This document shows, one piece after another, positions 45,470 to 47,054 of a stretch of 47,670 bases of DNA. How positions within the stretch are numbered: the stretch's first letter is position 1; each line of letters starts with the position of its first letter. The stretch is taken from the IMG/VR virus record IMGVR_UViG_2627853701_000003; one strand, written 5' to 3'. A model generated the notes under the pieces. It ran no database searches. It was given only the letters and a program-made list of their open reading frames with translations, and was not told the DNA's origin. This DNA comes from a virus. Taxonomy: Duplodnaviria > Heunggongvirae > Uroviricota > Caudoviricetes. The position numbers were made by a program, and so were the translations under genes.

Positions 45470-46783
45470 ATGGCAGTAAAGATTTCAGGTGTACTGAAAG
45501 ACGGCACAGGAAAACCGGTAGAGAACTGCACCATTCAACTGAAAGCCAGACGTAACAGCGCCACGGTGGTGGTGAACACGGTGGCCTCTGAAAATCCGGA
45601 TGAAGCCGGTCGTTACAGCATGGACGTTGAGTACGGTCAGTACAGCGTCATTCTGTTGGTGGAGGGCTTCCCGCCGTCACATGCCGGGACCATCACCGTG
45701 TATGAAGATTCTCAACCGGGGACGCTGAATGATTTTCTCGGTGCCATGTCGGAGGATGACGTCCGGCCGGAGGCACTGCGTCGTTTTGAACTGATGGTGG
45801 AAGAAGCGGCGCGTCACGCTGAGGAGGCGAAGAAGAATGCCGGAGAGGCGGAGACATCAGCGAGGAATGCCGGCATATCATCCAGTAAGGCGGAAGCGAG
45901 CGCGGCAAATGCTGACACTTCAGCAGGGGATGCATTGGAGTCAGCCCGGCAGGCGGCAGAAAGTGCAGCCGCTGCAAAGCAGTCAGAGGATGCGTCCTCG
46001 TCCTCGGCTTCTGCGGCCGCTCAAAAAGCCAGTGAGTCATCACAAAGTGCAGCAGAAGCTGAATTGTCAAGAAAGACGGCAGAAAGTGCAGCCGGTAATG
46101 CAGCCAGGGATGCAACGACCGCAACAGAAAAAGCCCGGGAGTCAGCAGAAAGCGCACAGTCAGCGGAACAAAGCAGGATAGCGGCGGAAGAGGCCGTAAA
46201 CCGAATCCCCACCGTGGTGGGACCTCCCGGGCCAAAGGGGGAACAGGGGCCCGCGGGTCCTCAGGGGCCGAAGGGTGATAAGGGAGAGCGCGGTGACACC
46301 GGCCCTGTCGGGGCAACCGGCGAACGGGGACCGGCAGGTGATGCTGGTCCGGCAGGCCCGCAGGGGCCGAAAGGTGACAGGGGAGAGCGGGGAGAGACCG
46401 GTCTGACGGGAAATGCAGGTCCACAGGGTCCAAAGGGAGATACCGGTGCGGCAGGCCCGGCAGGCCCACAGGGACCGAAAGGAGAAACAGGTGCGGCTGG
46501 CCCGGTGGGGGCAACCGGACCTCAGGGACCGAAGGGCGACCCGGGGGAGGCACAAATCCGTTTTCGTCTGGGGCCGGCGAGCATTATTGAGACAAACAGC
46601 AATGGCTGGTTCCCGGATACAGATGGCGCACTCATCACCGGACTGACCTTTCTTGACCCCAAAGATGCCACACAGGTTCAGGGGCTGTTTCGGCATTTGC
46701 AGGTCAGGTTTGGTGACGGGCCGTGGCAGGATGTTAAGGGGCTGGATGAAGTGGGCAGTGATACAGGCAGAACAGGAGAATGA
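45470..46783 (+). CDS. stf: side tail fibre (Stf-like N-terminus) with collagen-like Gly-X-Y repeats
   Basis: N-terminus [30 protein letters not shown]...[16 protein letters not shown] matches lambda Stf; residues about 245-360 are an uninterrupted GPxGxxGxxG collagen-like tract; distinct C-terminal domain. Confidence 0.75.
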
Positions 46784-46784
46784 C

Positions 46785-47054
46785 ATGAATATACTAAAAA
46801 AACTTATGCAGTGTCTGTGTGGTTGCGGAAAGCATGATGGCCGTGAACACGTGCAGTCGCCTACAGCACAGCTGCGACTGGGACCGGCAGACATCCTGGA
46901 GTCAGATGAGAATGGCATTATCCCGGAGCAGGACAGGGTAATCACGCAGGTGGTGATACTGGATGCGGATAAAAAGCAGATACAGTGCGTGGTAAGACCG
47001 CTGCAAATCCTGCGTGCTGACGGGACGTGGGAAAATATTGGCGGGATGAAGTAA
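46785..47054 (+). CDS. small protein paralogous to the fibre C-terminal domain
   Basis: 89 aa from ATG 46785; LRLGPADILESDENGIIP...ITQVVILD resembles the fibre C-terminus [20 protein letters not shown]...ITGLTFLD. Confidence 0.35.
   Translation: MNILKKLMQCLCGCGKHDGREHVQSPTAQLRLGPADILESDENGIIPEQDRVITQVVILDADKKQIQCVVRPLQILRADGTWENIGGMK

Follow-up and report, generated by a model that had tools for sequence, protein, structure and literature searches.

The 47,670-nucleotide stretch of viral DNA recorded in IMG/VR as IMGVR_UViG_2627853701_000003 (Caudoviricetes; the whole stretch is referred to below as the window) carries a two-gene tail-fiber module close to its right end. The first gene encodes a fiber of 437 amino acids (aa) that joins a lambda Stf-type attachment region to a collagen-like shaft. 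The second, an open reading frame (ORF) of 89 aa that begins 1 base past the fiber TGA, encodes a stand-alone copy of the fiber's C-terminal PfC domain. An initial annotation made from the letters alone had pointed to both genes, and the ORF list returns the same coordinates and lengths. The feature is already known, being annotated in Pfam and RefSeq and discussed in papers. PfC-tipped collagen fibers occur on both long- and short-tailed Stx-converting phages, which spread Shiga toxin (Stx) genes, and whether the small PfC gene modifies the tip, aids assembly, or supplies spare parts bears on host range and on the transmission of stx and effector cargo. The analysis adds evidence that the 89-aa ORF, far from being debris, is under selection and expressed, together with the exact recombination route to the rare fibers with an alternate tip. 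The 89-aa ORF is probably a selected and expressed accessory gene of the PfC module.

The fiber gene and its stand-alone PfC paralog

The fiber is composed of four consecutive regions, PfN, PCoil, Col, and PfC (Table 1). PfN, which the initial annotation described as a retained lambda Stf attachment region, is matched by PF08400 (phage_tail_N) with E 8.7e-69 and 230 bits against a cut-off of 26.6. A homologous N-terminal β-sandwich holds the fiber of phage phi24B on the tail adaptor, according to a preprint (10.64898/2026.04.10.717836). PCoil harbors 38 Ala, 23 Ser, and 14 Glu among its 117 residues. Col comprises 37 Gly-X-Y triplets with Pro at 18 of the 37 X positions, and is recognized by PF01391 (Collagen; E 3.5e-18). 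The tract is uninterrupted, as first described, although its 111 aa fall slightly short of the approximately 115 residues then claimed. Its DNA is 71% GC and consists of degenerate repeats with unit lengths that are multiples of 9 nt. In NCBIfam, the tract attracts only sub-threshold matches to collagen adhesins (Scl, Lcl), which are attributed to Gly-X-Y composition rather than homology. The distinct C-terminal domain corresponds to PF06820 (Phage_fiber_C, PfC; E 6.5e-36, 123 bits against a cut-off of 25). The PHROG matches of the fiber (366/3279) are labeled 'tail fiber protein', and an Stf-type shaft or tip (phage fiber repeat 2) gives no Pfam match at E up to 1.

Two long antisense ORFs lie opposite the fiber region (45693-46553, 286 aa; 46160-47068, 302 aa), neither of which has a significant Pfam match. 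Since the sense frames are under purifying selection, both are by-products of the 71%-GC GGN-CCN repeat, and the earlier suspicion that they are spurious is borne out.

In Ghosh et al. (2012; PMC3368898), EPclA is a 437-aa protein with the arrangement PfN-PCoil-Col(111)-PfC, and a copy is reported in nearly every lambdoid prophage of strains EDL933 and Sakai, including Sp15. Its representatives ECs2941 of Sp15 and ECs2717 of Sp14 share the length, the architecture, and the place after J and lom with the window fiber, the differences being allelic only. With PfN, PCoil, an uninterrupted Col, and PfC, the window fiber has, at the level of sequence, all the features that define EPclA and is a member of this family. 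The same paper describes recombinant EPclA (ECs2717) as a dumbbell-shaped trimer whose Ala/Ser-rich part forms a trimeric coiled coil and whose Gly-X-Y repeats make a genuine collagen triple helix melting at 42 °C. From its near-identity to ECs2717, the window fiber would likewise be a trimer with a collagen triple helix. PfC alone is a trimerization module that renucleates the collagen helix, the sole activity shown for it, and both recombinant EPclA (rEPclA) and thioredoxin-fused PfC (Trx-PfC) form correct trimers in E. coli without other phage proteins. The sections covered here, and term searches of the paper, yield no mention of a PfC-only gene downstream of the fiber.

The resemblance of the 89-aa protein to the fiber C-terminus, originally noted from the sequence alone, is significant. 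A single pairwise BLASTP comparison of the two gives 25/62 identities (40%) with E 2e-13. PF06820 matches the small protein over the entire profile (1-64/64; E 4.7e-36, 123.4 bits against a cut-off of 25), and PHROG 576 covers it from end to end (1-89/89), with all PHROG matches labeled 'tail fiber protein' or unknown. Small ORF and fiber PfC are paralogs, and the proposal of a duplicated tip domain holds. Neither Pfam nor NCBIfam returns a recognized tail-fiber assembly chaperone for it. The two PfC copies share 55.6% DNA identity in a codon alignment, and third codon positions are near saturation.

The same family includes Sp5 ORF68, 933W L0122, and phi24B 'gp59' (approximately 92% identical in 933W-type Stx2 phage records), all of which sit directly after a PfC-tipped collagen fiber. 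In Sp5, 933W, and phi24B, the small ORF follows EPclB of a short-tailed podovirus, whereas that of the window follows the shorter EPclA in a long-tailed, J-bearing prophage. RefSeq calls the fiber 'prophage tail fiber N-terminal domain-containing protein' and WP_001023381.1 'phage tail fiber C-terminal domain-containing protein', while GenBank KU977419 labels the small gene 'alternate tail fiber tip'.

The junction between the two genes places an AGGAG Shine-Dalgarno sequence six bases 5′ of the ATG of the 89-aa ORF, within the 3′ end of the fiber gene. The 23-nt junction AGGCAGAACAGGAGAATGACATG is unchanged in 62 of 65 related loci, and this stretch has the least nucleotide diversity of the region. 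No RNA structure is found at the junction (z-score −1.1).

The 89-aa protein begins with a short motif (Table 1) in which L11, G13, C14, and K16 are invariant across the E. coli, Citrobacter rodentium, and Salmonella homologs. The linker that follows (aa 17-26) varies and is deleted in the Salmonella homologs. The first 27 codons show nearly no silent variation within E. coli (dS 0.006). At codon 10 (46812-46814), the window allele has Cys in place of the family-consensus Arg, so that three of five consecutive residues are Cys (CLCGC); in the Salmonella homologs, residue 10 is Cys or Tyr. A seven-A run spans codons 5-6 (46796-46802) and, read in the frame of the ORF, makes up a slippery-type heptamer (A-AAA-AAA); it has no downstream structure, the −1 frame closes after 12 codons, and it is probably meaningless.

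An AlphaFold2 (AF2) monomer of the 89-aa protein (predicted local distance difference test, pLDDT, 61; shallow 10-sequence alignment) shows an N-terminal helix, placed with low confidence at aa 3-11, and five β-strands. The strands agree with the all-β circular dichroism signature given for PfC in PMC3368898. Foldseek of the model against PDB and BFVD finds nothing below E 0.001, and a hidden Markov model (HMM) search of PDB sequences returns chance matches only and no solved structure for the family. Owing to the poor model and these null searches, no fold is assigned. The same failure for the PfC domain is reported in the phi24B preprint (10.64898/2026.04.10.717836). A 565-aa protein (P0243) carries four tandem repeats of approximately 85 aa at residues ~40-360, followed by a collagen-like tract; in the C-terminal half of each repeat, 36 residues align with the second half of PfC at an hhalign probability of 95%, a sequence likeness which suggests that the PfC fold may have distant relatives in other phage fibers.

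Table 1. Positions of the fiber module and its parts in the window
Feature	Position	Strand	Basis
EPclA-type side tail fiber gene, PfN-PCoil-Col-PfC, 437 aa	45470..46783	+	Pfam, PHROG, DNA identity
PfN, lambda-Stf-type tail attachment domain, aa 1-133	45470..45868	+	PF08400
PCoil, Ala/Ser/Glu-rich rod, aa 134-250	45869..46219	+	composition
Col, 37 Gly-X-Y triplets, aa 251-361	46220..46552	+	regex count, PF01391
Direct repeat, upstream copy (13/14 nt, core GGGACCGGCAG), in collagen tract	46324..46337	+	repeat D5
Fiber PfC domain, aa 363-426, then 11-aa tail to stop codon	46556..46747	+	PF06820
Translational-coupling junction: AGGAG Shine-Dalgarno, TGA (46781-46783), 1 spacer base, ATG	46774..46787	+	
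Stand-alone PfC protein, homolog of Sp5 ORF68 / 933W L0122, WP_001023381.1	46785..47054	+	PF06820, PHROG 576
N-terminal motif M-x-I-[LF]-K-K...L-x-G-C-x-K, aa 1-16, then variable linker aa 17-27	46785..46832	+	
PfC domain of 89-aa ORF, aa 28-89	46866..47051	+	BLASTP, PF06820
Direct repeat, downstream copy, codons 32-36 of 89-aa ORF	46877..46890	+	repeat D5
Intrinsic-terminator-like hairpin and U-run closing the fiber/89-aa ORF unit	47066..47100	+	RNA fold

Co-occurrence, selection, and translation of the 89-aa ORF

The 89-aa ORF is found by tblastn in 296 of 50,697 phage records, and the fiber PfC is likewise found in 296, with the same organism breakdown. Records with both PfC types include the long- and short-tailed phages 933W, 434, 2B8, cdtI, and BP-4795. 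Among 76 IMG/VR loci, the ORF is intact and one base past the fiber gene in 74. In the two exceptions (L053, at 3700-4000, and L075), an insertion sequence (IS) lies directly upstream, ending ~35 nt before the ATG and replacing the fiber 3′ end, while the 89-aa ORF is intact. The 80 IMG/VR loci kept are those that match the full-length query best, which biases them towards intact copies; therefore, the persistence of the small ORF beside a broken fiber is not used as evidence.

The family is small, with 81 matches, mostly Escherichia fragments, among 1.84 billion representative proteins, so that structure prediction or co-evolution analysis driven by a multiple sequence alignment is not feasible. 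Named homologs come from Escherichia coli, E. albertii, Citrobacter rodentium, and Salmonella enterica. The window's exact allele is present on ~1000 contigs. A scan of genome contigs gives no match beyond E. albertii and one likely contaminant, a 725-nt contig labeled Xanthomonas pisi DSM 18956 (NZ_JPLE01000138.1), whose small ORF is 92% identical to that of the window and which is most likely Escherichia DNA contaminating the assembly.

In a Salmonella enterica lineage (P0227/P0262, locus L083), the same gene pair follows a non-collagen shaft. There, the Shine-Dalgarno sequence is AGGAGG and the ATG of the small ORF overlaps the 3′ end of the fiber gene. Between the Salmonella and E. coli lineages, the small ORFs are 54% identical, and the fiber tips 38%. 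The Salmonella-type locus has no megablast match among complete E. coli genomes. Downstream of it (L083 110-974, GCA_008387015.1) lie NleG-like and SopA-like effector genes, as in prophages of enterohemorrhagic E. coli.

The ratio of nonsynonymous to synonymous substitution (dN/dS), estimated by the Nei-Gojobori method, is 0.108 for the whole 89-aa ORF and 0.068 for its PfC part (dS 0.153, dN 0.010), whereas the fiber's own PfC stands at ~0.33, indicating relaxed selection. The estimates for the 89-aa ORF together span about 0.07-0.28. Segregating changes in its PfC are 18 synonymous and 16 nonsynonymous (p 2e-4), as opposed to 29 and 65 in the fiber PfC (Fisher p 0.037 for the contrast).

The ORF is translated, at least in phi24B, where it is at most a trace virion component. 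In the virion mass spectrometry (MS) supplement to the phi24B preprint (10.64898/2026.04.10.717836), the peptides ADGTWENIGGMK and VITQVVILDADKK are listed, and both occur in the window's 89-aa protein. The peptides are assigned to hypothetical fiber fusions or to 'gp59_start', in a row marked 'Spike or just gp59?', and the main text does not discuss the gp59 peptide rows. Genetic data come from Mondal et al. (2016; PMC5155283), who classed Sp5 ORF68, an 89-aa 'phage fiber C-terminus' ORF, as non-essential. The Sp5 mutants were made and assayed in K-12 MG1655; the fiber gene is essential, while ORF68 is dispensable for plaque formation and lysogenization on rough K-12.

A proposed accessory of the fiber knob and its alternatives

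In the proposed reading, the product of the 437-aa gene is the trimeric side tail fiber of a long-tailed lambdoid O157:H7 prophage. The Stf-type N-terminal domain would dock the fiber on the tail, a coiled coil followed by a collagen triple helix would form the shaft, and the fiber PfC would trimerize, nucleate the collagen helix, and make the distal knob. The 89-aa gene would be an old paralog of this knob that is functional in its own right, translated from its own Shine-Dalgarno sequence and ATG in a manner coupled to fiber termination. Its product would most likely be a free PfC-type trimer with a short conserved N-terminal helix/Cys motif, acting as a sub-stoichiometric accessory at or beside the fiber knob via a homotypic knob interaction or a shared ligand. 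Such a protein may tune adsorption to natural O-antigen-bearing hosts, with a benefit not felt on K-12, and would be neither a folding chaperone nor a silent cassette. The reading as a whole, that of a PfC-tipped fiber with an accessory acting on or beside its knob, has about an even chance of being right, and its knob-interaction component is offered tentatively, as possible rather than probable.

By extension, the 89-aa protein could stand for an undescribed class of fiber accessory, a free trimeric knob paralog that docks knob-to-knob or competes for a surface ligand and thereby gates or extends the adsorption of lambdoid phages, Stx phages among them, to hosts that bear O-antigen. A free knob paralog would account for the constant pairing of the gene with PfC tips, for a conservation exceeding that of the tip, and for the lack of a phenotype on rough K-12; the extension is nonetheless improbable. 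The working model draws on T2-type gp38 and on Tfa kept on Mu-type fibers, where the product of a small fiber-adjacent gene possibly acts at the distal tip. By analogy only, the 89-aa protein might act in a similar place; gp38 and Mu Tfa have no sequence relationship to it and are not tip paralogs.

Several points weigh against the accessory reading. Tip adhesins are usually hypervariable, while the 89-aa ORF is instead more conserved than the tip, a degree of conservation that is unusual where an adhesin is caught in an arms race. The selection estimates are drawn from the 80 loci closest to the query, whose allele pairs are not independent, and the AF2 monomer is poor (pLDDT 61) and lacks a fold match. 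The Sp5 mutation may have removed ORF68 alone or within a larger block. In the phi24B data, a handful of spectra represent the small protein, a trace beside the 2267 of the fiber, and the preprint authors kept the peptide assignment open; a cytoplasmic late protein contaminating the virion preparation is an equally possible source. The preprint also argues that the PfC fiber is not the BamA binder, and the receptor-binding tip raised in the initial annotation is conjectural.

The best placed of the alternatives, and still an unlikely one, is that the 89-aa protein is a Tfa-like helper, absent from the virion, that acts transiently in the cytoplasm to template or protect folding of the fiber PfC trimer. 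Its gene occupies the tfa position directly after the fiber gene and is translationally coupled to it, its presence only at trace level in virion preparations fits such a role, and so do its higher conservation relative to the tip and its occurrence in what matching counts and organism breakdown indicate are the same 296 phage records. According to PMC3368898, expression of PfC by itself was poor, and EPclB formed aggregates. The comparison with lambda Stf and Tfa extends to the PF08400 domain, the locus after J and lom, and the small gene directly downstream; however, the lambda Stf shaft and tip are unrelated to the collagen and PfC of the window, and lambda Tfa is no paralog of its fiber tip, whereas the 89-aa ORF is. 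The 89-aa ORF is also about half the size of lambda Tfa, which counts against a Tfa-like helper. It has no Tfa/Caudo_TAP similarity (its only Pfam match is PF06820, and NCBIfam gives none), and the ORF list contains no tfa-sized ORF downstream of the fiber. Furthermore, rEPclA and Trx-PfC trimerize correctly without the 89-aa protein (PMC3368898), and in K-12 the Sp5 fiber gene is essential, while ORF68 is not (PMC5155283), which together suggest that the fiber does not need the 89-aa protein to fold. No host copy would complement in trans, provided that the E. coli representative in the genome-contig scan is K-12.

Next in order, and unlikely too, is a silent reservoir in which the 89-aa ORF is a spare PfC module, an alternate-tip cassette that is recombined onto the fiber to change host range. 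The term 'intragenomic reservoir sequence' was put forward for Sp5 ORF68 by Mondal et al. (2016; PMC5155283), and the KU977419 label has the same sense. The route for such an exchange can be specified. A 13/14-nt direct repeat (D5, Table 1) is shared by the collagen tract and the 89-aa ORF, its two copies having an 11-nt exact match in the same codon phase. A 553-nt deletion between them predicts a 343-aa fiber composed of PfN, PCoil, 13 triplets, and the small-ORF PfC. This protein exists exactly as predicted (P0279) on a 93-kb E. coli contig, a fragment (P0059) is similar, and both have D5 at the fusion junction. Thus, the repeat allows a rare in-frame deletion that places the small-ORF PfC on a shortened collagen shaft. 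The swapped host-range module considered in the initial annotation stands to the extent that these natural in-frame fusions exist; as the general explanation of the gene, it is exceptional and weakly supported.

Recombination between the paralogs is also seen in the E. coli locus L084 (2697-3246, GCA_005381265.1), in which the 437-aa fiber is followed by a 92-aa chimera and then a normal 89-aa ORF. The chimera joins a small-ORF N-terminal half (the 5′ part) to a fiber-type PfC C-terminal half (the 3′ part), and the duplication, which counts in favor of a cassette, looks like unequal crossing-over between paralogs. Other E. coli chimeras (P0054, P0062, P0084, P0002), each in single copy, join J, lom, or tape-measure fragments to the small-ORF PfC; some at least probably arose by microhomology deletion in prophages undergoing decay, one breakpoint lying in the small ORF.

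The fusion cluster has four member sequences, against the ~1000 contigs that carry the window's exact allele. An own Shine-Dalgarno sequence, an ATG, and a conserved N-terminal motif would be superfluous for a cassette, and neither translation of the ORF nor purifying selection on its protein that is stronger than on the tip in use is expected of one. At 55.6% DNA identity, the two copies are a poor substrate for homologous exchange, and the fusion drops the first predicted PfC strand. Invertible and retroelement-based tip switching also differ from this locus. The invertible S-U segments of Mu and P1 and the mtd/TR system of BPP-1 likewise have a second tip copy downstream and rare recombinants that use it as the tip. 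However, the Gin segment of Mu and the Cin segment of P1 hold an inverted, repeat-flanked alternate tip, while the window copy is in direct orientation on the same strand as the fiber. Only three inverted matches are found at the locus, 14-17 nt long, imperfect, and scattered, and none flank the 89-aa ORF. The TR and VR of diversity-generating retroelements (DGRs) are near-identical with adenine differences, in contrast to the 55.6% identity of the window copies, whose mismatches fall over all bases. The downstream copy also differs from both kinds of system in being itself an expressed gene. A DGR or invertible cassette is rejected on identity, mismatch spectrum, and orientation. The reservoir role of the 89-aa ORF is partly real but marginal; the fusions are rare and do not explain its start signals, conserved N-terminus, translation, or selection.

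It is very unlikely that the two genes are joined by frameshifting or readthrough into a longer fiber isoform with two PfC domains. The small-ORF frame (+1 relative to the fiber) is open back to 46653, the A7 run described above lies just inside the ORF, and the MS database for phi24B held hypothetical 'Fusion_6159_FS1/FS2' proteins. Inspection of the fiber's last codons reveals no slippery site, since GAA-TGA cannot re-pair in +1, and there is no stimulatory RNA structure (z-score −1.1). Mondal et al. found no frameshift signal (PMC5155283), and readthrough of the TGA meets a stop after 18 codons in the fiber frame. In the phi24B passages searched, no junction-spanning peptide is found, and the 'fusion' count exceeds that of gp61 only in the low-molecular-weight slice EA1829 (25 versus 24), which hints at a free small protein. 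A programmed fusion is rejected for want of a slippery site at the stop and of RNA structure, and for the 18-codon dead end.

Equally remote is a lysogenic-conversion or exclusion factor, namely an exported Cor/Llp-like lipoprotein or a moron product that blocks the fiber receptor in the lysogen. The invariant L-x-G-C (L11-x-G13-C14) resembles a lipobox, the gene lies at the border of effector cargo and next to the moron lom, and the small ORF is intact beside the IS-truncated fibers, a pattern that is offset by the skew of the 80-locus sample to intact copies. The ORF has the lipobox L-x-[GAS]-C of Cor/Llp lipoproteins but not the hydrophobic core of a signal peptide. The 13 residues before the Cys (consensus MNILKKLMQRLCG) include R, Q, K, or H in every lineage; on inspection, K5, K6, Q9, and R10 (K or H in Salmonella) precede Cys14. 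The window allele's MNILKKLMQCLCGCG is lipobox-like; with R10 in the consensus and no hydrophobic core in any lineage, a lipoprotein or signal peptide is rejected. Expression is coupled to a late structural gene, and a promoter scan, as a whole no better than on shuffled sequence, finds nothing sigma-70-like on the + strand that could serve the small ORF.

A decaying, functionless remnant of old fiber-gene recombination, the last possibility raised in the initial annotation, would suit the mosaic fiber loci and the deletion chimeras (P0054, P0062, P0084) with J, lom, and other genes that end inside the small ORF, but is effectively refuted by purifying selection and conservation, including conserved start signals, intact copies in 74 of 76 loci, presence in as many phage records as the PfC tip, retention of the gene pair in Salmonella at 54% identity, and translation in phi24B.

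Genomic setting of the module

Over its final 3 kb, the window has 100% DNA identity to the prophage beside btsS (yehU) in E. coli O157:H7 EC4115, TW14359, and many other O157 genomes, and 99.3% to phage VT1-Sakai (Sp15). J and lom precede the fiber and the 89-aa ORF; a short degenerate spacer, an oppositely oriented dinI, and host genes follow in this order. In the 3 kb downstream of the 89-aa ORF, the only annotated genes are dinI and the host genes btsS and btsR.

The module is closed by a hairpin (−23.1 kcal/mol, z-score −4.3) that is conserved with it. Nucleotide diversity among relatives is at most 0.11 from the collagen tract to this hairpin and then rises to ~0.6 at ~47115. Homology breaks at ~47100-47115, where relatives have nleC, nleG, or nleL cargo. 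The spacer of the window (47100-47420) holds no convincing gene, and RefSeq places a frameshifted fragment at ~47056-47144. Since close relatives have nleC, nleG5-1, or an nleL-like SopA effector in this spacer, the window prophage seems to carry an emptied effector locus. Beyond it, a DinI-like gene on the − strand (47422-47670; PF06183, E 1.2e-19) reaches the last base of the window; in EC4115, dinI is followed by host btsS/btsR, which marks the right end of the prophage.

Upstream of the module, lom (44806-45405) is flanked by terminator-like sites on the + strand, each a GC-rich hairpin with a T-run (44757-44776 and 45432-45453). The second site stops 17 nt before the fiber ATG, a classic 'moron' layout. 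The position of lom between these sites implies that the fiber is reached only by antiterminated late transcription.

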